Positions 4,164 to 49,504 are shown, numbered from the whole stretch's first letter. The stretch is DNA of 63,722 bases, filler included, from Reclinomonas americana ATCC 50394 (GCA_048213135.1; 16 parts of 16 records of this genome joined end to end with filler, not necessarily neighbours in it); one strand, 5' to 3'. The notes: generated by a model not told the origin, from the letters alone. Made by a program: numbers and translations.

Positions 4164-5152
4164 GTGTGCGTGCATGCGCAAGTGTTGGCGCGTCTAGATC
4201 TGTCAGGTTCACTCCTTGTCATGAATCCTTTTTGGACCATTCCTTCCCCTCTCTCTCCCTTTCTCACTCTCTCGTCTCTCTCGCACACACGCACACGCAC
4301 ATACAGTCTTGCTACTGCGCACAGTCCTTTTTTGTGCATGTGCCCTTTTTGGACTCTCACACGCCTTCTTTTTCTCTCTCTCTCTCTCTGTTGATGTTGT
4401 CGCGTGCAATCATCTGATTACTTGTTGGCGTCTCTGATGTGCTGCACATGCGTCCTCTCTCTGGCATTCGCGACATGTGATCGAGAGAGACCTGCCATTT
4501 GCCACATACAGAGAGAGGGAGGAGAGAGAGAGAGGGAGAGAGAGAGAGCACACTGTTTGAGTCGTCCCTATTGTCGCATGCGTCCTTGTGGTGCTCTCTC
4601 AGCTAATCTTTGTTTCTTTCCTCCTCCATCCCCTCTCCTCTGCAATCCCTCCCCTCCTCAATCCTACTCTATCCTCCTCCTCCTCCTTCTCCTCCTCCTC
4701 CTCCTTCTCCTCCTCCTTCTCCTCTTCTCCCCCCGCCTCGATCCTTCTTCCTCCTCTTCCTTATTAATCCTTTCGTCCTCTCCTTGTTCTTCCACTCTCG
4801 ATCACTTGTCCTTGCCTTTCGAATTCCTTCTCCCCCCGCCCCCCTCTCACTTGTCCCTGCCCGCCGCTGTGCACAGATCCGACAGCTGCGCATTGTGCTC
4901 ACGCGTACGGGGCCGGGGAGCACTTACGCCCAGCTACTGGGTTTCTCTGGCGATGGCCTCAGCGACAGGCGGTACATTCCATCGGAACTCGCTATGCGCT
5001 CTGGCATCTCGCTTCTCGCTCGCGACAGCGACTCCAAGCGTCAGCAACGCGCACGCATTGGTCTGTCTGCCGACTACGATATCGAATCCGAGCCGAGCGA
5101 GGACGCGGTGCGCAGTTTCTTGACCAACTTCCCCCCTGTTGCGATAAGTTAG
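3969..5152 (+). CDS. Hypothetical protein (two exons, 3969-4118 and 4878-5152; upstream exons possible)
   Basis: MSAGEVAELKAL..ARMIVK joins in phase 0 to IRQLRIVLTR..PPVAIS* across a CT-rich GT-AG intron; no recognisable domain. Confidence 0.4.
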
Positions 5153-5222
5153 TGCAGCAGGGGATGAGGGAGGTCATGGGACTGTGCGTTGCGTTCCTTG
5201 CTTCGGCGCCGGTGACGAGCGT

Positions 5223-5690
5223 ATGTCGGCGGGTGGATCAGGGAGTGGCGTGGCGATGGAGGAGGGAGGGCATGAGGATCCGGAGGAGGATGAGGATGAG
5301 GAGGAGAATGATGATGATAATGAGGAGGAGGAGGAGGAGGAGGACGACGAGACTGAGGAGGGTGAGATGGAGGTAGATCACTGGCCGGTATTCAGCAGCA
5401 GCGGCATGCTGCGTGGGGGCAGATACCATTCTCAGTGCTGGGACGGTAATACCCCTTCCCCGTTCCGGAGCCCCAGCCACTTGCCGCACTTGTTCGAGGG
5501 CCCATCTCCTCTCCCACGCAGCTGCTTCGCTTCGCCCTCGAGTGAGCGCGGCGGCTATCGTTCGCCCTTCGATGATGACGACGACGAGATGCTGTCGCCT
5601 GCAATGCTGCTGAAACAGCTTCCCGACCAGATCATGTGGGTCTCGATTGCGTCTAATATTCCGCTGTTTGAGGGTAGCGAGGCGTGGTGA
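5223..5690 (+). CDS. Hypothetical acidic protein or exon
   Basis: Open frame with a D/E tract and an S/P-rich segment; coding-like composition; no recognised homology. Confidence 0.35.
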   Translation: MSAGGSGSGVAMEEGGHEDPEEDEDEEENDDDNEEEEEEEDDETEEGEMEVDHWPVFSSSGMLRGGRYHSQCWDGNTPSPFRSPSHLPHLFEGPSPLPRSCFASPSSERGGYRSPFDDDDDEMLSPAMLLKQLPDQIMWVSIASNIPLFEGSEAW

Positions 5691-5880
5691 TTAGGAAGAT
5701 TGTGAGTGGCAGTGTGTGTGCTACAACCGTGCGGCAATATTAAGCCTCCTTTTGCAAGCTGAATGAATTCTCCATCCAATTTTTTCATGTAGAAACTCAC
5801 AACACACATTCCTCCTCCTTCGACCATCACCCAGCACGGTACGCCGCAAGAGAATCCGCTCACCACGACAAACGTGCCCT

Positions 5881-6913
5881 CTACCGGCGTGGCGGACCGC
5901 CACGGCCACCTCGGAAACCACCGCCTCCGCGACCACCACGGCCGCCACGACCACCACGTGCTCCTCGTCCACGGCCACCGCCTGCAGAGGGAAGAGGAAA
6001 GGGTGTGAGGGAGAGAGGGAGAGGGAGAAATCATTGAGCAGGGCACTGTGAGCGAAGCATTAGAGAGGAGCCTCTCTAGCTTCTTACAACAGAGACGAGA
6101 GAAGAGCACAATGACAGAAGCAAACGATGCAAGAGTGGATGGATGACAGATTTAAGAGAGTAGAATAACATACAAGAGTATGAAATCTCGACAGACGTCA
6201 GAAGAGAATGAAAAATCGAAACAATGTGCTGCGCGTGCAATCGTAAGATCGCAGAAAGATTGCGGGGCAGAATGGAAGAAGCACACACACTGCAGTTCTA
6301 CACCGGAGGCAAGGATGCAGTGAACTGAGAGAGCGAGAAAGAACAAGAGAGTGTTGAGCTTGTGGAAACCAAACACAAGAGGCTGCAGAGGGAAGAGAAA
6401 AGGGTGCCGAGGTCGATCAATATGCAGGATGATAGGATTACACGAACTGAGCACTGAACACCGCGTTCTGGATCGCAAGAGGCTGCACCAGACAAACAGA
6501 AAGAGAGAAAGAGAGAGAGAGAGAAGAGAGAGAGAGAGACGAAGAGCGCGATGCGTGAGAAGAGAACACAACAGGCTTCAGAGAAAGAGGANNNNNNNNN
6601 NNNNNNNNNNNNNNNNNNNNNNNNNNNNNNNNNNNTTAATTAATTAANNNNNNNNNNNNNNNNNNNNNNNNNNNNNNNNNNNNNNNNNNNNCAAAGGGAG
6701 AGTGAGTGCTGAGTGGACATGGCCGACATGACACGCACTTTTTTGTGACACACAGCGAGAGGCGGGAGAGGGAAAGGGAGGGAAAGGCGTGCTCTATTGT
6801 GTGCAACTGTCACGATGTGCGTGATGAGTGGCAAAATGACAATGAGGCCAATTGCACAATGACATGCAAGTGGTGACTGCCGTGTCGTGCATGCTCTCTC
6901 ACTTGCGCGCGCG

Positions 6914-6946
<33 letters not shown>

Positions 6947-8300
6947 TCTCACACAGTGCGCGTATGAGCATGCACGCAACGGGCGCGCTCGTGTGAGTCC
7001 AATTGAAGTGTGCACACAAAAGTGACTCTCACATGCACAAGCATTCTCTCTTGTGCGCGCACACGCTCTCTCTCTCACATACACAAACACACACACATAC
7101 ACACACTCTCACACTGTGCACGCACACAAGGAGCGCGCACACGTGAGCCCAGTTGAACACGAAAGTGACTTTCACGTGCACAAGCGTTCTTGCGCGCGTA
7201 CACGCTCTCTCTCTCACACTCACAAACACACACACATACACACTCACACAGTGAATGCACGCAAGGAGCGCGCACACGTGAGCCCAGTTGAACACGAAAG
7301 TGACTTTCACATACACAAGCGTTCTCACTTGCGCGCGCGTTCACGAATACTCTCCCTCTCTCTCTCACAGACACACGCACACACACACACTCACTCACTC
7401 ACACAGAACACGCACGCAAGGAGTGCGGACGAGTGAGCCCAATTGCACAAAAGTGACTTTCACATACACAAGCATTCTCACTAGCGCGCGCGTACACGAA
7501 TGCTCTCCCTCTCTCTCTCACACAGATACACACACACACACACACACACTCTCACATTATGAACGCACGCAAGGAGCGCGCACACGTGAGCCCAATTGCA
7601 CAAAAGTGACTTCAACGTGCACAAGCCTCACTCACGCACGCGCGCACGCACGCTCTTTCTCTCTCTCTCTCACACACACACTCACTTTCTCACTATGCAC
7701 ACGTATGCGCACACGGGTGCATCGTGGCACGAGTCATTACAACGTCGACCACACACACAAAGACATGCAAATTGCAAGTGCGCGCTCTTCTCACTCACTG
7801 CCTTATATGCGCGCGCGCTCTTTGCCTCTGTGCGTGCGTGCCTGTCTGAGTGAGAGAGAGAAAGAGTGTCTGTGCACAGTGAGACAATCGTCTGAGAGGC
7901 AACATGCAGCAAGACATGCATGCGCGTTGTGCTGTCTCACTGCTGCCACTTGCTTGCTCTCAGGCTCTGTGTGTGTGTCTCTCTGTGCGCAGATGCATGT
8001 GTGTGTGTGTCTTTCTCTCAGTGTGTAAGAGTGTGTGACTCACCAACAATCGTTCCATGCACAGTGGTGCCGTTCTTCAGCTCCAGCGTGACTGTCTCGT
8101 TGGACAGCTTCATCAAAAACCTGTGAGTGCGTGACATGAGTGAGTGAGTGAGCAAGAAGGGAGAGACAGTGAGAGAAAGAAGAAGAGAGACATGTCACAC
8201 TAGACGCTTACTGCAAAACCGTACGCATGCATGTGTCTGTCTATGTGTAGGTGAGTGCGTGTGTGTTCTATGTGAGCGAGACGCACCGCACGAGCTTCAT
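5881..8300 (-). CDS. SNRPD1: Small nuclear ribonucleoprotein Sm D1 (middle exon(s) not found, probably in the gap at ~6592-6691)
   Basis: Exon 1 MKLVR (ATG at 8300), exon 2 [26 protein letters not shown] (8043-8121), last exon [19 protein letters not shown] (5881-5981), matching the SmD1 N-terminus and RG tail. Confidence 0.92.
6880..7700. repeat. Intronic minisatellite, ~120-bp unit with embedded CT/CA tracts
   Basis: Recurrent gcacgcaaggagcgcgcacacgtgagcccarttg..aaagtgactttcaca units within a SmD1 intron. Confidence 0.85.
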
Positions 8301-14957: not shown

Positions 14958-17900
14958 NNNNNNNNNNNNNNNNNNNNNNNNNNNNNNNNNNNNNNNNNNN
15001 NTTAATTAATTAANNNNNNNNNNNNNNNNNNNNNNNNNNNNNNNNNNNNNNNNNNNNCTGTGCGCCTGCTCAACATCTCCGCCAAGGGCACTCGCGTTCA
15101 CATTGTGGCCCCGGAGACACCGTATTTCGTGCTCGAGTATGACAAGAAGGGAGTGGTGCGCAAGCAGGGGAGGGGGAAAGGGGCGAAAGAGTGGGTTGTG
15201 TGCCGTGTCTCTTTGTATCTGTTATGGGTGAGCGTGTCAAGAAGTGAGAGTCTTCGAGAACGAGAGTGTGTGCCTGCAAGAAACATCTCCTGAGTCCACG
15301 ATTGCTGTCTCCTTGTGTATCTGTTCATCGTGTGCTGCGTAACGAAGTGGTGCGCAAGCAGGGAAGGGGAAAGGGTGACGCTCAGAATGCAGATGTTAAC
15401 CTGTACTTCCCCCTTTTCCCAGATCCAACCCGGCATGTCCGAGGAAATCTCTGTCGTTTTCCTGCCCGCCGAGCACCGCTACTACTACGACTGCATTCGT
15501 GTGCACACCGAGGGCGATGACGACACGAACATGGTGATTCCGCTGCACGCGTACCCTGTGGTGAACCAGGGCGAGGTCTTCCCCAAGCGTGTGGATCTCG
15601 GCAAGTGTGCGCTGGGTGAAACGTTGCGTGTCGAGGGAGGGACTGTCTGCGAGAGAGAGAAGGGTCAAGTGCGAGTGCTTCCGCTCCGTTTGTCTGAATG
15701 ACGACTGCTTGCATTTGAGGTGTTGCTCCCGTGACTTGCACTCATTCATCCTTCTCCTCACCCACCCTTTCCCTCTATCACCCTTTCCCTCTATCACCCT
15801 TCCCCTCACTCACCCTTTCCCCTCGCTCCCGCAGTGTCACCCGCGTCATCCCGATCCACTGCGAAGTCCCCGTGGAATTCGAGTTCGAAATCGCCGTCCT
15901 GCAGTCCTCCATCGACATGGACATTACGCCACTGCGCGGCACGGTGCCGCCCAACGGCACGGCCGAGATCACTGTGCAGTTCACGCCCTCGCGTCTCGCC
16001 ACGTGCATGAGCAAAATCGAGCTAAGTTTGAGCCAGTTCGAGTCCGAGCCGATTGTGTGCACCATTGTGGGGACGGCGGCGGCGCAGGAGGTGGGTGTGA
16101 TGGGGGAGAAGGGAGGGAGATGGGCTGAGAGAGAGATTGAGGGAAAGGGAAAGGCAACGGAAGTAGAAGTGAGAGTGGGAAGAGGAACAAGAGGGGAAAC
16201 GGAGAGAAGGAGAGCGAGAAAGATCAACAGCTGAAAGAGAGAGAAGGATGGGGAGAAACGGCGGAACAGATAGTACACACGAACTGCGTCGCTCTTTGTG
16301 CATCTCTCGACCTGTTGCTCGTTCTCTCTCTTTCTTGCTGTTGTTCTTTCTCGCTCTTATTGCCACTCTTCCCTTGTTTCTCGCAGTCTGTCTTTTTCTC
16401 ATGTTTCTGCTTCGTTCTCCCCCCCCCTAACTCTCTCTCTCACTCTCTCGCAGTTGTGTTTTCGATTTGTCTCTCTTGCCTTCCACTTTCTCTCTCTTTC
16501 TTGGGGTTGATTGTTTGTTATCATTCCTGCTCTTTTTCTTACTCTTTCTAGCAGTCTCTCCTTCTCTCTCTTGTTGCTGTTATTCATAATCCATTCTCGC
16601 TCTCATTGTCACTCTTTCTTGTTCTTTGTTTCCGCCTCCCGCTTCCTTGCTTTTGCTTCAACTGTTTTACTTCTCATTGACTCTCTCTCTCTCTCTCTCT
16701 CGCACACACACTTGCCATCTCACAATCTCTCTCGCTTCATTTGTTATACTTGTCGCTTTTCTCTCTCTCATACACACTTCTCCTTCTCTCACACACTTTT
16801 CCTTCTCTTTCTCTGTTTCACTTATCTTTCTCGCTGTATGATTGTTATCATTCCCGCTCTTGTTCTTACTCCTTCTCCCCATCTTTGCTATCACTCTCAT
16901 TTAACTCTCACCCCCCCCCTCCTCTCTCTCTTCTCTCGCTTCAGTTCTGTCGTCATCGGTATTCAGTCTCAAGTTTCTTTACTCTCCTACTCATTTCCTG
17001 CTGTCATCTGCTTGAGGCAGTCGTCCTCGTTTCCCCACTCTTCTATCACCGTTGTTGTTTCCTCTTTGCTTCCGTCCACGTTTTTTTCTCTCATTATTTA
17101 TCGCTCCTCTTTGCCCTCTCTCTCCTCCTCCTGTTTGCATTCCTTAATTTACTTCCCTTCCCTTTCACTTTCTTCTTCACCGTTCCCTTCAACATTCCCT
17201 TCTCCTTTCCCTCACCCTTTCCCTTCCCCATCACGAAGGTCCGCCGCCGTGAACTCAACAAAGCCACCCAACGCCTGGCCCGCGAGCTCGCCGGCAACCC
17301 CGCCCGCGATCCCACCGTCCGCGAAGACGGCGCCGACGCCAAGGCCGTCACCGTGGTGCGCAGCGGCGGCGGTGCCGGCGGCGGCGACCTGGTGACACAG
17401 ATGAAGCACGAGGAGCTGAAGCGCACTCGCGGCACACGGAAGGACAGGGTGTGTTGTCTCCTCTCCTGTGTAGCACTCTGGGTGTCACCTGACTCCGTCT
17501 CCTCTTGCGCAGGAATTCAAACTCCCCCCTCCACCACCTGCCGAGCGCGAGGTCGACGGCCTCATTGTNNNNNNNNNNNNNNNNNNNNNNNNNNNNNNNN
17601 NNNNNNNNNNNNTTAATTAATTAANNNNNNNNNNNNNNNNNNNNNNNNNNNNNNNNNNNNNNNNNNNNCAGAAGTGGTGAGGAAGGGGAAAGGGGGTAAA
17701 GGAGAAGGGGAAGAGAGAAGGGGAAGGGAGAAGAGGAGAAAGGGGGGAAGGGGAAGGGAAGAGAGGAGAAACGTGGAAGAGAACACGAGAGAGAGAGAGA
17801 GAGAGTAGAAGGGAAGAGGATGTGTGACATGGTATGAGGACGAGGGACAAGCTTGGAGAGAGAAAGAGGGTGCATGAAACCGAGAGTCGTAAGAGCGTTC

Positions 17901-20900: not shown

Positions 20901-23900
20901 GCTGATCGGCGCCGAGACCGAGCTCATCACCATGGGACCGGCCGGCTTGCAAAAGGAGGAGGCGGCTGTTGATTTGCGGCTGAATGATGCTGCGCGGTCG
21001 CACCAGGCGTGCGTGCTGCGCCGTGCCATGCTGCCGTATCCGTCGATGACGCCACAGGTGTGTGTGGGGCAAAGGGTGACGGAGAAGTACAGCGTTACCC
21101 CGTAAGGCACTCCACTTCTCTCCTCTCTCCACGTGTGCCCTTTCCCGTGATGGTTTCTTTTGGGACGCGATGCTATGCAGTCCTAGTCTGTGAGCAAGTC
21201 TGTGCACCTTCTCTCTTTCTGCCTATTTTCGCGTCACATTGAAGCGCACTTTGCGCTCTGACTCTGTCTGTTGCTCGCTGTATGTATGTCAGCCGAAGCA
21301 AGTGAGAAACAAAACTGCTGCGAAAGAACCTAAGTGTTTCTCTTTCTTCTCTTTCTTCTCTCTCTCGTGTACGTGTTCGGCGCGATAGCGTTGACACGAC
21401 TTGCGGTGCGTGCATTTAGCGAGTTTGTGTCTCGATTCTTTCTCATTTTCTGTCTTGACCTTGTGTGATGTGAGAATGCGACTTTGCTGAAAAAGGAGTG
21501 AGCAAATAAGTGCGCGCTTTTCCATCTCTCTCTCCCTCTGAGTGCGATGGAGATAGAGAGAGAGTGAGAGAGTTGCCTGTGCTCTCGTTCTCATTCTTCC
21601 ATTTCGCCCTCTATCTCTCTCTCTCTCTTGTGTGATGTGAGAATGCGACCTAGCTGAAGAAAGAGTGAGCAAATAATGCGCGCTTTCCATCTCTCCCTTT
21701 CTGAGTGTGTACGTGATAAAGAGAAAGAGAGAGAGAGAGAGCTGCCTGCGTTTGTGGAAATACATTCACTTCTCTCGATCTCTCTCGCCTTCTCATCTTC
21801 TTCTCTCTGACCCTTGTATTGCACAGTCATCCCTCCTCCCCTGGACCGAGGCCGACGCCTCCTACGGTGCCATTCGCGCCACTCTGCTGCGCCCCTGGAA
21901 ATCAATCGTCGCCAGCGGTAACAAGCGCAGTGCCGGACAGGCCTCTGCGGATCCTACTGTTGCGTCATCTCTCCCTCGTTCTCTCTCTCTCTCTGCTGTA
22001 CGGCCAAGGCGGATGTACGGTACAGCAGACTTCCAGACGAGCAGCCGCCTGGCCCGACCCGTCCCGTTCCCCGAGTTTCACGTATTTTGATNNNNNNNNN
22101 NNNNNNNNNNNNNNNNNNNNNNNNNNNNNNNNNNNTTAATTAATTAANNNNNNNNNNNNNNNNNNNNNNNNNNNNNNNNNNNNNNNNNNNNTCCTCCCTT
22201 CTCTCCCCTCCTTTCCCTCCTTTCCCCTCCTTTTCCCTCACTTCCCCTCCTCTCCCTCCCGTTCCCTCCCTATTCCCCTCCTTTTCCCCCCTTTTCCCTC
22301 ACTTCCCCTTTGACCTCCACAGAGCTGGCTCGACTCGCTTCCACCCCCCGCCCAGCACTCGTTCCGCCGCATCCAGCCCGACAACATACTCTGCGGCACC
22401 ACCGCGCTCTTTAGCATGAGCAAGGCCAAGACGCTGACCGATGTGTTCGCCGACGCGCACGTGGACACGCTAAAGACGGGCGCCAATGCCGACGATGCCC
22501 TGAAGGCCTCGTCGTCGCGCTTCGCCATGACGCCGCCGGCTCGATTGTGCGCCGAGGCCGTGCACGAGCGGCGCGCTCTGGCCATTGAGCGTCGCGAGAA
22601 GGAGCAGCAGCGCAAGGAGGAGAAGAGGAAGTTGAACCCGGCCACAGGTGAGCCTGTCCAAGAGAAGAAAAAAAGGCAAGGCTGAAAAGTCACTCACTTT
22701 CCCTCCCGCCTCTCAGCCACCATGTCGGCCACTGCGGTCGGCAGCGCCACCAAGCACAACGCGTCGGCGCTGTTGAGTGCGAGCCTGCTGCCGGCGGGAG
22801 CTGCGGCTGCGGGCGCCAGCAATCTGCTGCAGTATCGCGGGATTGCGGCGGCGTTGGACACGCAGCGGTCGGGTGGGGTGGGTTTCTCCACTCCGTTTTT
22901 GCCGTTTAGTGCGCTGCATCCGTCGGCGGCCACAGCGGAAGGTCGGTTAGGGAAAGGCGAAGAGAAGGGAAAGGGAGAGGGAAAGGGAGAGGGCAAGGGT
23001 GAAGGGGGAGGAGAAGGGGAAGGAGGAAAGAAAAGGGTGGAAGATGAGGGCTTGCGTGTGTTTACGTCTTGTAGTGTCGAGGGGGCCAGATACATGCATA
23101 GATCCTGTAGGATTTGTTGCGTTTCATGTGTTTGTGTTCCTCCTTTTATTCTTGCGAGCGGGTGTGCGCAAGTGTGTGTGGTTTGTGAAGGAGAAGAGGT
23201 TGAGATTGCATGACAGTCTGTATTTGGTAAGCTCAAGATTAGGAAGAGTATCAAACAAAACAGACATGACTGTTGAGGGTGCAGGAGAAGGGAGGGGCGA
23301 AAACGGTGCACAGATATCTGCATGGGTGCAAGGATTTCAGTGCACATACAGAGCAGAGCGCTTGATCAGCAGGCGAGTTCTCGTAGGGGACTGAAGTCAT
23401 CCTTCCTTTTGAACGTGGTTGAGATTTCAGTGTGCTGTTTTCTTGCACTCTTTCTCATCTGTCATTTGGTTGGATCTGGCTGCAAGCAAGATCACTCTCG
23501 TGCATTCTCATCTCACATCTGTCTAGTGATGAGGTGCAAGTGCAGCCTGTAATCAGGCATGCTCTTTTTCATCGGAGAGAGGAAACAGCAGATTGCAAGT
23601 AACATTGATCCTGCATGTTCATCTGTCATTTGGTTAGATGAAGGATCTGACTGCAAGCAAGATCTCTTGTGCATTCTCATCTCACATCTGCCATGTGGTG
23701 CCTGTAATCTGGCTTGCTCTCTTAAGATTGCTCTTGTTTGTGCTCGCATCAGTGAGGAGCTGAAATAGCAGATTCTTGTCAATCAAGTTTGCTCTTGCGT
23801 TCTCCTCTCTTCTCTGTGTGATTTGCCAAGCTGATCTCTTCTCATCTCTCCTCTCTTTTCTCTTTACTCACACATGCCTATGCCCTCCCTTCCCCCTCTC

Positions 23901-24930: not shown

Positions 24931-25579
24931 GCGAGAGAGAGAGAATGATTAGGATGACTCGGTTCACCTGTGGAGGTGTGATTTGCTTCCTTTGTGTCAT
25001 TCATTTCGCAATCGTAAGAAGGGGAAGAGAGCACATGGTGATGTTTCTTTGTCCTTTCTACCTCGCTCAACACAGTTCGCAGTGAGAAGTGAGGTGAGCT
25101 CGAGATATTTTTGTGTACATTCTATTCTGCGTTTTTTGTTGCAAGAACGTGCAGTTGTGAGATGGGAAGGGATGCTGCTTTGTCTGCTTCGGAACAAGTG
25201 CATATGCGAGCAATCTGTGCACGGCTGTGCGCGTTTTAATTCAACAAGAGATGGGGATATGGAGAGAGAAGTCTGAATGTGATCTTTCTATTGTGCTTTT
25301 TAGTGACTTGGAAAGCACATCTCTTTCCTCCCCCCTTCCTCTCCCTCTCCCCCTANNNNNNNNNNNNNNNNNNNNNNNNNNNNNNNNNNNNNNNNNNNNT
25401 TAATTAATTAANNNNNNNNNNNNNNNNNNNNNNNNNNNNNNNNNNNNNNNNNNNNCCTCCTCTCTCCTCCTCCCTCCCCTCCTCCCTCTCCCTCTCCCTC
25501 TCCCTCTCCCTCTCCCTCCCCTCCCCCCCTGTTCCTCTCCCTCCCCTCTCCCTCCCTTCCCTTATATCACACTCCTCAC

Positions 25580-26742
25580 CTTCTGCACCATCTTCTTCGG
25601 ATCAATGTAAATCAATCGCGGCTTGTCGGTGAGAATCATTTGCCGCTTCTTGGCCGTCAGCTTCCGCCTCTTGACGACGAGGCCCTGATGCAGCACCTCC
25701 TCGCCCGGCAGCAGGAATTCGCTCCATATTGACGGACTGGCGGCCTCGGGCACGTGTTGCTCGGGGTTCATGCGCTCGCCCGGCAGCACCAGCGCTGGCA
25801 TGTCCTCCAGGTACAGGCTCTCAAAGTGGATGCCCTCGAAGAAGGGGTGGGAGCGGATCTCGTCGTAGCCGCCGGGGCCCATGCCGAGGCGTTGGAGGGG
25901 GTCGATGCGCTGCAAGGGGGGAGATGAGGGGAAGGGGGATGGGGGGGGTAAGGGAGGGGCGTATGTACCAGGAGGCTGGTGATAATGTCGCGGGCCACGG
26001 GCGATACTTCGACGGTGGAGGGGTATTGGTAGTCGAGGGTGAGGATCTGGTGGGGAGGGGAAGTAAGGGAAGGGAAGGGGAAGGGGAAGGGGAAGGGGTA
26101 GAAAGGGGAAGGGGAAGGGGGAAAGTGCGAGGGGACAGCAAGCATAGAGAGAGAGAGAGAGAGAGAGAGAGAAGGAGGAGAGGACTGAAGTGACTCTTGT
26201 CCGACAGCGCTCATAAAGAGGGAAAGAGAGAGACGATGCGGAAAGAAAAAAAAACTCATTTGCATCCAGAATGACAGTGCTGGCTGCGACAACGAAGCCG
26301 CGTGCGCGAGTATGTCCGAGAGAAAGCGAGAAGAAGTTTGAAACTTATCACCAAGCCTGTTCTATGTGTAACTGCTGTTGTGGACGCGTGCAGTTCAAAT
26401 TGGGAGAGAGCGCACCGTTGCGGTTGGCTGATTGCCAGGAGGACTGCCTCTCCGATCTCTCTCCTATCTCCTTGTGCATGTACGACTTCTCTCGCGTTGC
26501 TCACTTTTCTGCCACTCTTTATTCTGTGTTATCTCTCTTCGGTTCTCTCCCTCATGCATGCAAACACTCAGTCCCTCTAGAATACACAAACCGCCCACAA
26601 ACAAGTGTATCCGCTCTGCGCGTTCAGTTTGTCCTCTCGCTCTTCTCTCCTTGCTCATGCGCACATGCGGCAAACAAACATACTCGATTCCTCTCTCACA
26701 TGCGTGCATTTCACTCAGGCACCGTCTGTCTCCGTCATTTGA

Positions 26743-37747: not shown

Positions 37748-40700
37748 TTACTGTACCTGCGCAGCCGCTGAGGAGCCACTCGCGCTCTGACCACCGGCCT
37801 CCTTGGCCTGTCGAAGCACAGAGATCATGCGCAACACACGACCTTTCGGGATCGGGTTTCCGTTGGGCAGGCGCAGCTCGCCGAGAATCTCCTTGGTCAT
37901 ACTCAGATCCTCTGAGAGGGTCTGCGGATCGAGCTTCTCCGAGGAGAGCATCTCAATCATACTGTCGCGCTCGGCAGTCGAGTCCGTCTTCAGCGCATCG
38001 ACAAAGCTGGCAATCGACGACAGCGGATCATCGACTGATCGACCGTCCTTGAGTGTGGAGCCGCCGAAATCACGCTCGAAAAAGTCTCGATAGAGGCTAC
38101 GCGCACGCACACGCACATGCATAGGCAAATGAGCAAGAGCAGCGACTCTGTGTGTGATCGCAGTGGCCACAGCGTGCGTACCCCGTAATGCCTTGCGGCA
38201 GAGCTTCCAACGACTCCATTGCAGCGAATTGCTCGTTGCGCACAGCCCGGATCAGTTCTGCGACAGAATCGTGGGGGAAGTATCAAACGGATGGTGCGTA
38301 TGGTCGCAGACGACACCCGAGCTCGTACCAGTGACATACAGAAAGTTGAACTCGGCCTTTTGGCACACAATCTCCACGCCGCGGGTGAGGCCCTCTGTGG
38401 AGTCGGTCTGCAAGGATGCCAGATTCAGGCAAGAGCCAAAACCGGCAGTAGAGGCATCCGCAGGCTCGCACACACCTGCATACTCCTGATGAAGAACTGG
38501 CGCAATGTGCTATCACGCTTGAGCTCGTGCATCACCAACGCTCGCACGTCGTCCTGCGGCGAACACAGAGGAGTAAACAACACACGAACACTGCGCCTAC
38601 TCTCGCATCACCACCACCATCACAGACAACGAACTCACCTTGTTGAGCTCGGTTCGCACATTGATTTCGACGGCGCGCGGAATTTGGACGCGATCACGCA
38701 CGTTTGCCTTTGGCCGACTGGTGCAGACCAGTCGCAAAAAGTGGGGGAACAAGCTGATCGAACCCTTCAACAACTCGATAATGCTGTCGGCACCACGCTC
38801 CTGCGGCAGTTCATCCAACGAGTCCACCACCAGCAGTTTGTGCTGCACGAATGCATACCACCAGTGAGACCACAAGCGCATATTCTCGTCGACATGAGTG
38901 CGAGCGCACACACCTCCACCGGTAGCCGCTTCAAGTTGCGCAGCGGCTGCAACACACCCAATGTCCACGCATGCAGAGCACCTCGCTTATCAATCTCCAA
39001 CAGCGCCGTGTACGCTTCCAGATCGGTACACAGCTGGTCGCGGTATTCGGCAAACGAGTGCAGCAACATCCACGCCACACTACGCACAAATGCGTTGACC
39101 TGCAAAAACACGTGTCACAAAACTATTGCGCAAGGGAGCGACGAGTACCGGCTGTACGAAACATCGTGTGTGCGTCGGACGTTCCATCGACAAATGTGGA
39201 ATGCGACAACACGGTTCTGGCAGGTTGCCACCGTCGCCTCGTGCGCGGCATCGAGTGCGGCCGCCGCTGACGACACGAACGGACGCGGTGACGAGGGTGA
39301 ACCAGGTGACGCCGGAGTCTCACACACCACCGACACGGCTCGTTGTTGCTGCAGAGTGCACGTGAGATCAGGGGAGAGAGACGGTGGAAACGACAACATC
39401 GAACACACCAACAACGCAGTGGCATAGTGGGAGACCAACTTGGCGACAAGCGATGTCTTGCCGACACCCGGATCAGCGTACAACATCATCGCACGCTCAC
39501 GCTGCGCAACATGCGTGAGAATAGGGCGGAAAGTCAAGTTGATGAACAGAGAAACACACACGCAACTACAGCCGGAGCGCAAAACGACTCAATCTGAGCA
39601 AACAACCATTCGCGGCCAACAAACTGCCTCTGCTTCTCCTCCAGGAACGCAGCATAGTCGTGCACCAAGCAATCACTCTCTAGCCGGCGGAACAAGTCGT
39701 CCGACTGGAACGATCTTGTGCTGCAAGCGCAAAAGATGAGGCCACTCGCACGCCCGTCATAAACACATGCACGCGCACACACACATACCTCGAAGTCTCC
39801 GACTGACGGAACGAGAGGTCCATGACAGAGTCCGACAATGGCAGCTCGGAACGCGTGCGCGCAACATTGACACCGCTCGATCGCCGCATGTCGCTTTCTG
39901 AGAGATTGCGCGAGAATGGCGGCAGGGTGGAGTCGATGCTGGACCCCGAACGCAGAGGCGGAGGCCGCCGTGAAGCACGCGACGAGCGCGCCACGAACGG
40001 ATGTGCCAACAGCATGCGTGCATCGGCACGACTCTCCGGGTCGCTGTGTGGCCACCAAGTGGATGAGGAGCTCGTCGCCAATCAGCAGGCAACAAGCAGC
40101 CAATCGACGACGACTCACCGAATAAAACACTTGGTGAGAAAGTCGCGCAGGTCGGATGTGACGTTGGCGGGGATTGGCGGCTGTGTGTTTTCTTGCGAAA
40201 TGTGCCACATGAATGCCAGCTGCATAAAGGGCATGAGGTGAAAGGAGGAGACGCGATGTGTGAACTCGACAAGGGACGAACATCGTTGGTGAACTCCGAA
40301 AATGGTCTCCTCCCAGTGATCATCTCCAGCACCGTGCATCCTACAGAGAAACAGGAGTGTCAGAGAAAGGGAACATGCGTTGTGACAGTCGTTGACCACC
40401 CACCCAGACTCCAAATGTCGGCCTTGGTGGTGTACCTGCCCTTGCACACCTCCGGAGCCATGAACCTACAGTAGGTAATCAGCGCATGAGAGAGAGTGTG
40501 TGTGTGACAACACCAATAAAGACGCACCCTGCTGTGCCCGTAAACGTGGTCGCCTGGCGATCTCCCTGCAGCACGTCTCGCGAGCACCCAAAGTCGGCCA
40601 GCTTCACCACCGTGTCGGTGCCTGCAGGAGAGGAGAGGGCAAATGAATTGGGCGAGGGGAGGGCAGGGGGAGGCAGTCGGCGATCGCACTCGAACGCACC

Positions 40701-40948
40701 TGAAGCCGAGAGGAGAACATTCGCACCCTTCAGATCGCGATGAATGATGCCCTGACTGCACGAGCGGCGACATCGTATCAGCAGCGATGCGAATTGAATG
40801 AAAGCACACGCAACGGACGCATACCTGTGCAGATAATCGAGTCCCTGCAGAATCTGGTACGTGTAGTTTGCCACAATGCCCTCGGTGAAACAGTACTTTT
40901 TCACATGTAGCTGATCCGTGATCGAGCCGCCGCTGCACAGCTCCATGC
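37748..40948 (-). CDS. STE/MAP3K-like kinase fused to a NACHT/NPHP3/TANC-like STAND NTPase and a C-terminal SAM-like domain (kinase N-lobe in the gap)
   Basis: Kinase: QILQGLDYLH, HRDLKGANVL, KLADFGCS, FMAPE, ADIWSLG. In-frame splice to FVGREWLF, Walker A ADPGVGKT, Walker B LLVVDSLDE, LVCTSRP, NFLYV..LPQGITGLYRDFFER. Then a SAM-like segment EKLDPQTL..MTKEILGEL..IPKGRVLRMI. Confidence 0.85.
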
Positions 40949-41203
40949 CTGTCCCCCCATGAGCATCGACAATGAGAGGGAGAGAGAGAGAGAGGGACCC
41001 TCTCCGACGGCAGCTTNNNNNNNNNNNNNNNNNNNNNNNNNNNNNNNNNNNNNNNNNNNNTTAATTAATTAANNNNNNNNNNNNNNNNNNNNNNNNNNNN
41101 NNNNNNNNNNNNNNNNGAGACAGTGATCCACCGACATAACACACTCCGACCAACGAAGAGATTCTCGTCGTGTGTTGTGTTGAAGCGCGCAACTGCAGGC
41201 AAC

Positions 41204-44200
41204 ATGAGTTCGCGCCCTGATGTGCAGCAGGTACGCACCACCCCCCTCTCCATTCATCCATCCACACACGAATACGCGCGGAGAGTGCGCCTCTCGGTTT
41301 CTCTGAAGCGTGTTGTCGCTGGACGACATTCCCGCGCTCGCACACTTACACTCACTCACGCGCACATTTGCGCGCTCTCTCTCTCTCGCAGTTGTTGACT
41401 GGGCTCGTCGACGACATTAGCGAGATGGAGCGGCAGATTATGACGGCGACGCGACGCGATGCACAGGCGTTCTCGGCACTGGGCGAGCGTGCGCGTGCGC
41501 TGCAGATTATGAAGCAGCGTGTGGCACCGCACTCAGAGTTGAGTGCACCTGGCGGGACAGGGAGGGAGGGAGGGAGAGAGAGAGAGAGTTGGAATGTGTG
41601 CGCTGTCTCTGATGCGGTTGTCCCTGTTTCGTCGTCGTCGTCTCTTGTCTCATTCTGTCGCTTACTGGTGCGTGTGGTAGGGCCGAGGCCGAGCTGTTTC
41701 GACAGGTGCAGGAGCTGGAGACGGCTGGGCAGGAGCAGATTGAGCAGCTGCGCAAGACGGAGCGCAAGCTGTTGCTGTTGGAGAGGTTTGGCGCGATTGT
41801 GTTACTGTTTTTTTCGGTGAGACAGCTGATCCACGCGCGCGTAGTGCCAAGAAGGAACTGGCCAACATTCAGCAGCAACTGGACCGCTTGCAGTCGCTGC
41901 GTGGCAGCTCGTTGGCCGCAGCGGCGGCCGCCACGGGTGCCACCGAGGCGCAGCTGTTGCAGTCGCTGGCCACGGCGAGCTCGTCGCTGAGTGCGGCGGG
42001 AGGTTCGCCACAGCCGCCAGCGCCGGCATCGCGATCGCCAGTGCCGTCGCCGAAGCCATCGCCAGGCGGCAGCGCCTCGGCGCAGTCGTTGTCGGTGGCG
42101 CCGCCGCCGGCAAACCGCAGCTCCCCCTCGCGTTCACCCGCTGGTCTGTCTCCCGCCGGCAGTGCTCGTGGATCGTCCAGCCCGCAGCCGGCGCAGGCGT
42201 CTCCGTCGTCGCTCAGGCCGCGCCAGCAGGGTGCGTATTCGTCACTCTGTGTGTGTGCGTGTCTGTTGTTGTTGGATATCGCTCATTTTTCTACCTGCCA
42301 GTGTTGACGGCGTCGCCGCACGATGTGGAGGAAGATGCGAATTCGATTGACACGAATGACTCGGTGCCGACAGGTTCGAGAGTGTCTCGCTTCTGTGTGT
42401 GGTGTGTGCGTGCGCATTTCTCTCACTGTACGATCGCAGAGGTGTTGGATATGAGTTCGCCAGAACGCAGTGGCCCCTCACTGCGCACAAACGACTTTAT
42501 GGCCCCGGGTGCACGCAAGTCGCCGGCTCGTTGCGTCCACCTGTCTGTCGGGCGACAGTTGTGCTGGGAATCATGACAATGTGTTGCAGAACTGGCACGA
42601 GATGTCAGCAGTCTGTCGCTGCTCAGCGATGACATGCGCCGATCGCCGCTGGTCGGTCGCGACGCCGCAGTAGCCTCCGCACCTCCGGCCCGCGCTGCTC
42701 CCATGTATCGACAGGAGAGTGTCGACTCTGACCAGTTCCCCAGCGCCGGCGGCCGTGGTGGCGGTGGTGACGACGATGACGACGATGACGTCGATGCTGA
42801 GGATGATGATGATGATGATGACGATGATGACGAGCAGGATGAGGATGGCGAGGGGCTGGAGGAAATCCTCATGAACATGACGCCGGAGGAGGTGGCTGTG
42901 ATGCCCCCAGAGATTCGCGACCTCTACGAACAGTACATGGAGCTGTCGCGTCAGAAGGCCGCGCTGCTGGCGGCGCAGCGCGAGCAGCGGAAACAGCAGA
43001 TGGAACTCGAGCAGCTGCAGCAGCTCAAGCGTCAATACGAGCAGCTGCGTGATTTGCAAATGCAGGAACAAATGTTGATTCGCCAGTCGGTAAGTGTGCG
43101 CGCATGTCGGTGACCATGGAGATGCTGTGTGGTGGGTGACACATCGCACACAGCGTGGACTGCAGCAATCGGAGAGCGAGAGCTCGTCGCGCCATGGCGA
43201 CGCATCGACGTTTGGTGGCGCGAGGTCGGTGTGCTGCTAGGCGATGTTTAAAAAAATGCGTGTTGTGGCACTGATTGAAGCGCACGGCAGCACCGAGGTG
43301 ATGGTCGACGAATCCGATGCCGACGACGAGCAGGAGGATGAGGAGGAAGGTGACGACGGTGACGATGAGGATGATGGCGGCGATGGCGACGAGGACGAGG
43401 AGGACGACGACGATGAAGAGAACCAGCAGCTGCAGGATCAGCGACTGGACGACGTGGACGACCCGGTGACGGAAGGTCTCGTTGTTGTTGTTGTGGATAC
43501 ATATGCACGTGTATGAGTGTGCATCTCAATCATGCGTATGCATATGTGGAGGCACAGCGAGCCGCATGGATGTCGACGACATCAAGCTGGCACTCCAGTT
43601 CTGTCGCGGACTGCCGAATCCAATGGACCGTCGTCGGTTCCTGGGTGCATTCTTCGAGTACTATCGTGTTGCGTGCAGCCCCCTGGCGTGCCTGTCGCGT
43701 CACCANNNNNNNNNNNNNNNNNNNNNNNNNNNNNNNNNNNNNNNNNNNNTTAATTAATTAANNNNNNNNNNNNNNNNNNNNNNNNNNNNNNNNNNNNNNN
43801 NNNNNGGCATCGTGCTGATTCGAAGAAACTGCTGCAGACAAGACTCGGAGATGACTGCGACGTCCACCGAGTCGGCCGGTCTCATGGAGGTGTCGTGGTT
43901 GTTGTCTGTGGCCTGTTGTTGACTCATCATGCATGATCTGCAGTCGAACGGGCGCTGACCGTGGCGATGCTTTGGTGGTACAGGGAAGCGTGGAGGAGGT
44001 GCTGCGTGAGCTTGGTGTGTTGGTGGAGCAGACACTGGATGTGCTGGCCAACGAGAGCAGTCCGGGCAGCTCGCAGCGCAATCGCTCGTCGCAGCGGTGA
44101 GTTTGTCTTTTGTGTGTGTGTCTTTTTTCCGTGCTGCTGCAAGACACTGACGTCGCTACAGTCGGCGTGAGCTCGTACAACTGACGTCGGCCATGCGGCA

Positions 44201-46940: not shown

Positions 46941-49504
<2,564 letters not shown>

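Follow-up and report, generated by a model that had tools for sequence, protein, structure and literature searches.

A partial gene for a probable kinase–STAND NTPase fusion in Reclinomonas

Fusions of protein kinases to NACHT-type NTPases are already known from fungi and bacteria, and the gene described here adds one real, partial case. In fungi, PKinase is among the annotated domains of NLRs (Dyrka et al. 2014, PMC4986451). A study of Sordariales describes PKinase as an N-terminal domain type that earlier work had considered canonical though rare, and reports that the kinase is C-terminal in 9 of 12 kinase-bearing NLRs (PMC12258605). For bacteria, Kibby et al. (bioRxiv 10.1101/2022.07.19.500537) name protein kinase as one of the domains fused to NACHT modules. 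Bacterial Ser/Thr kinase–STAND–TPR proteins follow the order seen in the present gene, a kinase and then a STAND ATPase, which in their case is followed by helical repeats. Animal NACHT proteins of the NPHP3/TANC/NWD1 type carry TPR, ANK or WD40 arrays and are not known to have a kinase.

The Reclinomonas locus shares with the fungal kinase NLRs the placement of a kinase effector upstream of a NACHT-type NOD. It differs from them in that its kinase is provisionally MEKK-like whereas theirs are unclassified, in that C-terminal repeats are unseen, and in its host, since Reclinomonas encodes the cilia protein CFAP65. The closest full-length relatives of the NTPase that were found are bacterial TIR-NPHP3_N-TPR proteins (the P0003/P0004 family introduced below), with named examples from Paraburkholderia, Nitrotoga and Methylotenera. 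The motifs FxGREWxF, GxGKS/T, hhhhDxLDE, TSRP and GLPGLYxxYF are common to both and occur in the same order, but identity is only 26–28%, and the effector of the bacterial proteins is a TIR domain where a kinase is found here. The bacterial proteins also have a clear winged helix and TPR arrays after the NTPase, neither of which is detectable in the present gene. With the animal NPHP3/TANC/NWD1-type proteins, the locus has in common the Pfam family NPHP3_N (PF24883), as judged from exon-level matches and from relatives, and the motifs of its NTPase presumably resemble those of TANC and NWD1. In a narrow search of the literature, no paper came to light that describes a protist protein combining a MEKK-like kinase with NPHP3_N.

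We interpret the locus as part of one intron-rich eukaryotic gene that encodes a STE11/MEKK-like Ser/Thr kinase, a disordered linker and an NPHP3_N/NACHT-type STAND NTPase, which together would constitute an NLR-like switch. We estimate the probability of this reading at roughly three in four.

Gene model and domain assignments

The window, by which we mean the whole stretch of 63,722 nucleotides that was analysed (filler included), is composed of 16 contigs of 1.25–13.8 kb with fifteen 100-bp linkers between them, each linker consisting of 44 N, TTAATTAATTAA and another 44 N. The kinase–NTPase gene is located on the minus strand of a 3329-bp contig (37688–41016), of which it is the sole gene, and which is flanked by linkers at 37588–37687 and 41017–41116. 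A hand-built and script-checked model places 16 exons between 37748 and 40948. All 15 introns are GT-AG and 60–85 nt in length, and the reading frame is open, without internal stop, across a product of 716 residues composed of the kinase C-lobe, the linker and the P-loop NTPase. The motifs named in an earlier, sequence-only reading of this DNA (FVGREWLF, ADPGVGKT, LLVVDSLDE, TSRP, NFLYV and LPQGITGLY) are all present on the minus strand where that reading had placed them, and the intron that it had proposed at about 39721–39788 is indeed GT-AG, 68 nt long and in frame. A tblastn search of the gene model against the window matched other kinases and identified no second copy of the NTPase, and scans of the whole window for Rfam families and tRNAs gave no matches.

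Exons 1–7 (40948–40825, 40755–40700, 40621–40528, 40465–40404, 40340–40282, 40219–40119 and 40043–39789) encode the kinase C-lobe and the linker, with kinase coding sequence from subdomain V onward. The HRDLKGAN, DFG and MAPE (APE) motifs are intact in exons 2–4, and exon 7 contributes the Ser/Arg/Pro-rich linker of about 70 residues. On exon 1, which is 40 aa long, the Pfam family Pkinase reaches 27.1 bits and covers profile positions 77–115 of 263; since the match opens only at position 77, both the N-lobe and the start codon are missing from the contig, and the kinase is represented here by its C-lobe only. On the 5′ side of exon 1, 68 bp of intron lead to the contig boundary, by which the gene is cut at this end.

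The kinase had been called MAP3K/STE11-like in the sequence-only reading. Using as query a 139-aa in-frame read-through of exons 1–3 only, the top match in the PDB was MAP3K2 at 31.9 bits, with ULK1 second at 24.5 bits and the next matches, at 20.9–24.0 bits, mostly from the STE group (MAP4K, TNIK, MST, PAK and ASK1). These matches uphold a STE-group kinase upstream of the NTPase. STE group, MEKK-like (STE11/MAP3K) is the best available label for the kinase, and the choice of MAP3K over other groups is not secure.

The NTPase begins in exon 8 (39720–39570), which encodes a pre-P-loop helix and the family motif FVGREWLF. Walker A is found in exon 9 (39501–39409), with ADPGVGKT at 39477–39454 and its GVGKT core at 39468–39454. 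Exons 10 (39348–39163) and 11 (39099–38914) together make up the block 38914–39348 and provide a low-complexity insert followed by a VVAFHIC motif and a helical region. Exon 12 (38842–38639) contains the Walker B motif LLVVDSLDE and the sensor-1-like TSRP. Exons 13–15 (38553–38476, 38407–38329 and 38257–38182) encode a helical domain with NFLYV (exon 14) and LPQGITG, and the motif LPQGITG/LY straddles the junction between exons 15 and 16.

Several lines of evidence assign this region to the NPHP3_N/NACHT-type STAND NTPases. When the exons were queried one by one, Pfam scores stayed below the cut-offs: the 31-aa exon 9 matched AAA_16 (19.9 bits), NPHP3_N (16.4 bits) and NACHT (14.8 bits), and exon 12 matched NACHT (20.7 bits) and NPHP3_N (16.8 bits). 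A profile built from 28 relatives, whose own Pfam NPHP3_N scores are 83.6–190 bits, matched the model at 93.3 bits (E 8.9e-31) over residues 281–330 and 375–608, aligning collinearly from FVGREWLF to GLYRDFFERDFG. In this alignment GVGKT of exon 9 lines up with the family P-loop, and the columns that are invariant among the 28 relatives comprise D, L, D and E of Walker B and T, S and R of TSRP. In the Atlas, exon 12 reached a top score of 0.93, and 28 of 30 matches carry the same NPHP3_N family set as the top one. The exon-level matches, the relatives' profile and the Atlas thus bear out the earlier call of a NACHT/NPHP3-type STAND NTPase.

When 1.84 billion representatives were searched exhaustively by phmmer with exon 12 as query, four matches reached E ≤ 0.001. 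P0001 (1342 aa) has two tandem NPHP3_N modules and no recognised repeats; P0002 is a 99-aa environmental fragment; P0003 (875 aa) has NPHP3_N and eight TPR_12 repeats; and P0004 (1021 aa) has, by Pfam, TIR, NPHP3_N and TPR-like repeats. The spliced model aligns over residues 283–612, with scores of 94 bits to P0004 (4e-23), 83 bits to P0003 and 69 bits to P0001. P0002 is 58% identical to the model and runs straight across the junction of exons 11 and 12. A search seeded with P0004 recovered at least 120 relatives, and those named to organism are all bacterial. Among the 120 relatives listed, 107 by our count have a TPR family, and the majority have TIR. One metagenome scan gave a sole locus with an intronless relative (NPHP3_N, 63.8 bits), in which about 480 residues without a Pfam family precede the NTPase and the sequence breaks off inside the NTPase. 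For exon 12, a word-index protein search, which covers longer proteins only, gave no match at E ≤ 0.01, and phmmer against the PDB gave only a chance-level match (E 0.58).

Six splice junctions are collinear with relatives, one in exons 11–12 (through P0002) and five in exons 10–16, and these collinear alignments validate the splice model from exon 8 to exon 16.

The last exon and the 3′ end of the gene

Exon 16 (38096–37748) starts with LYRDFFERDFG and continues through about 100 residues of predicted helices into a Gly/Ser/Ala tail, which is closed by TAA and then TAG. Codon usage shows the exon to be coding in the frame of the model, with log-odds per codon of +0.64 in this frame versus −0.21 and −0.04 in the other two, and its GC3 of 0.70 is the same as that of exons 1–15. 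Its first 13 residues belong to a conserved family motif in the alignments of relatives.

Searches with the exon as a whole returned little. No Pfam family was found at E ≤ 1 or at E ≤ 10 for either a 115-aa or an 85-aa version, phmmer against the PDB gave one irrelevant match (E 0.8), the Atlas gave no usable match, and a word-index search of longer proteins found no homologue at E ≤ 0.01. Single-sequence AlphaFold models consist of four to five helices with pLDDT values of 50.6 (115 aa) and 54.4 (85-aa core), so that the modelled folds cannot be trusted, and a Foldseek search with the 115-aa model returned nothing at E ≤ 0.001 and no sterile-alpha-motif domain among the 17 rows listed at E ≤ 10. 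Reading the exon as a winged helix was likewise rejected as unsupported: comparison with the relatives by hhalign gave a probability of 0.4, and the score against their winged-helix profile was −0.9 bits, which was equalled or exceeded by 412 of 2000 shuffled sequences. A winged-helix domain was not found after the helical domain, where a divergent or an off-contig one is possible.

The sequence-only reading had the protein end at this exon. The stop codon that it relied on (TAA, 37750–37748) is real, but the contig ends 60 bp further on, and the gene is possibly cut by a contig boundary at its 3′ end as well. Were 37748 the true end, the product would be a sensor-less kinase–NOD protein whose last 100 residues form a divergent winged helix or a new helical domain, and which would depend on a partner in trans for sensing; we regard this as a serious alternative, if a doubtful one. 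It is favoured by the tandem stop TAA TAG, by the length of exon 16 (at 349 nt the longest exon, versus at most 255 nt for the others; terminal exons are often the longest), and by the codon signal, which fades over the last 15 codons, in the low-complexity Gly/Ser/Ala tail. Some relatives also have no recognised repeats, namely P0001 and the 13 of the 120 listed for which no TPR family is precomputed. Against it stand the 107 of the 120 that carry TPR arrays after the NTPase and the contig break just beyond the stop, at a gap of unspecified size. STAND switches, moreover, need a winged-helix domain, and with none detectable the switch would be incomplete.

A candidate GT donor immediately before the stop (37756–37755) bears on the question from both sides, its position counting against a true end and its weakness in favour of one. 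Scored with a matrix derived from the gene's own 15 donors, it reaches 2.0, which is within the range of the true donors (−5.1 to 11.3) yet ranks 64 among 258 decoy GT sites, and it is therefore uninformative.

The order of contigs in the window is also relevant. A PDK1-like kinase piece (27118–27276; top PDB match PDK1, 64.6 bits) and a PDK1-type PH domain (25580–25729; PH_3, 64.1 bits) are located on adjacent contigs, on one strand and with gene order kept, a collinearity which suggests that the contig order may reflect real scaffolding. Pieces of CFAP65 occur on contig 15058–17568 only and on neither neighbour, and the rest of that contig is equally blank. The contig next to the stop codon (35331–37587) has an ORF on the plus strand, opposite to the gene, that ends at 37152. 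On this contig and on contig 41117–43705, which follows the 5′ linker, minus-strand ORFs of 45 aa or more yielded no repeat or kinase family. If the contig order is real at the junctions of the gene, then with no repeat domain on the minus strand of the next contig and with the opposing ORF that ends at 37152, further exons could lie only in the unsequenced gap, and to that extent the order favours a true end at 37748.

The upstream junction tempers this argument. The minus strand of 41117–42300 has no GxGxxG or VAIK that fits a kinase, and a candidate 25-aa exon (41118–41192) has no Pfam match at E ≤ 10. As the ORF, motif and candidate-exon searches all failed to find the kinase N-lobe on the upstream contig, either the gaps hide several hundred bases or adjacency fails at that junction; adjacency is accordingly unproven at the gene's own junctions, which weighs against a true end. 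The specific outcome in which the gene truly ends at 37748 and fuses a MEKK-like kinase to an NPHP3_N-type NOD, with the winged helix and TPR sensor replaced by a small new helical domain, seems to us unlikely.

Probable joining of the kinase and the NTPase

The preferred reading, a single gene for the kinase and the NTPase, requires that both be encoded on one mRNA, and this is very probably so. Intron 7 (39788–39721, 68 nt, GTATGT...CAG) lies between the kinase tail and the NTPase, and its removal keeps the two in frame. The two coding parts are only 68 nt apart, the splice is canonical, and the intron is of the usual size for this gene. Over the 219 residues that precede the conserved FVGREW, the frame of the NTPase contains no Met, and the first Met past that motif sits just before Walker A, so that a start there would delete FVGREW. 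The in-frame splice from kinase to NTPase proposed in the sequence-only reading is thereby sustained.

We consider it improbable that the kinase and the NTPase are instead two neighbouring genes or are carried on two mRNAs. The small gap, the canonical in-frame splice and the missing upstream Met argue against such an arrangement, while two observations lend it some weight. No relative retrieved has a kinase ahead of this NTPase; in the four significant matches that position is taken by TIR, by nothing or by a second NTPase. In addition, if intron 7 were retained the kinase frame would reach a stop 36 codons on, which makes a kinase-only isoform conceivable.

The suggestion that the C-terminus is a SAM domain through which the protein polymerises and so switches on the kinase is very improbable and its clustering role is conjecture, since the likeness of exon 16 to SAM domains amounts to a short, mostly helical segment at the protein end (four to five helices in the AlphaFold models and a hydrophobic pattern) and the Pfam, PDB, Atlas and Foldseek searches described above provided neither a sequence nor a fold match, with model confidence too low for the folds to count.

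Proposed mechanism and implications

For NLRs and Apaf-1, an established STAND model holds that ligand-triggered nucleotide exchange leads to oligomerisation, which in turn activates the effector by proximity. By analogy, the kinase–NTPase product would likely operate in the same manner. A signal would release the ADP-locked NTPase, and nucleotide exchange would then drive its oligomerisation. The N-terminal kinases clustered in this way could activate one another and go on to phosphorylate downstream targets, possibly those of a MAPK-type cascade.

Among full-length relatives of the NTPase, the nearest that were found are TIR-NOD-TPR proteins of bacteria, in keeping with the published view that NACHT modules have passed between bacteria and eukaryotes (bioRxiv 10.1101/2022.07.19.500537). 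The more striking picture of a sensor-less protein with a SAM tail stems from the end of a contig and from a domain assignment that found no support, and it offers the lesson that where genes end beside assembly linkers, their ends are no guide to the ends of proteins. Should 37748 prove to be the true end, a flagellate eukaryote would have in this gene a minimal NLR that lacks a sensor and feeds straight into a MAPK cascade, with bacterial TIR-NOD-TPR proteins as the nearest full-length kin found. If the fusion is expressed, it would be a case from a protist of an NLR-type ATP switch with a MAP3K-like kinase built in.

Contig joints and contig order

The window is made up of 16 contigs of 1.25–13.8 kb each, and the joints between them are identical 100-bp linkers composed of 44 N, TTAATTAATTAA and a further 44 N (1253–1352, 6592–6691, 14958–15057, 17569–17668, 22092–22191, 25356–25455, 26825–26924, 29059–29158, 35231–35330, 37588–37687, 41017–41116, 43706–43805, 57634–57733, 59799–59898 and 62246–62345). 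Gene ends and gene neighbourhoods that adjoin any of these linkers are suspect. A PDK1-type PH domain (25580–25729, minus strand; PH_3, 64.1 bits) and part of a kinase for which PDK1 is the top PDB match (27118–27276, minus strand; 64.6 bits) are situated on neighbouring contigs, share a strand and retain gene order, which suggests that the contig order reflects scaffolding and that the gap between the two pieces conceals at least the kinase C-lobe.

The extreme end of the contig upstream of the kinase–NTPase gene fragment contains a 25-codon open stretch on the minus strand that follows a CAG acceptor (41118–41192). The stretch bears a loose resemblance to kinase subdomain IV. Pfam returned no matches to it at E ≤ 10, and neither a Gly-loop nor a VAIK motif was found upstream of it.

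Relatives of the NTPase

An environmental relative, carried by metagenome locus L001, is intronless (4953–7139, plus strand); its NPHP3_N NTPase (63.8 bits) is preceded by ∼480 residues without a Pfam family, and its ORF remains open at the contig end. A second relative, the 1342-residue protein P0001, contains two NPHP3_N modules in tandem (190 bits across two stretches), with no recognised repeat domain. This double-NOD architecture is unusual.

Kinase-like stretches and CFAP65 in the window

Besides that of the model, four kinase-like stretches are present in 64 kb: two located by tblastn with the model (2494–2849 and 47839–48583, both plus strand), the PDK1-like piece and a kinase on an ankyrin-containing contig. 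None of the four adjoins an NTPase. On the ankyrin contig, the plus strand of 30468–34374 encodes Ank_2 repeats (69.7 bits), a coiled coil with weak similarity to CortBP2 (24 bits, under the family cut-off) and the protein kinase (47.6 and 51.3 bits). These may constitute a single large gene, the tail of which could lie on the following contig as an ORF rich in Ser, Pro and Gln (35833–37152, plus strand).

Pieces of CFAP65 Ig-like domains were also identified (15294–16231, plus strand; fourth Ig domain, 41.5 bits), so the organism encodes a cilia- and flagella-associated protein, and this suggests that it is flagellated.
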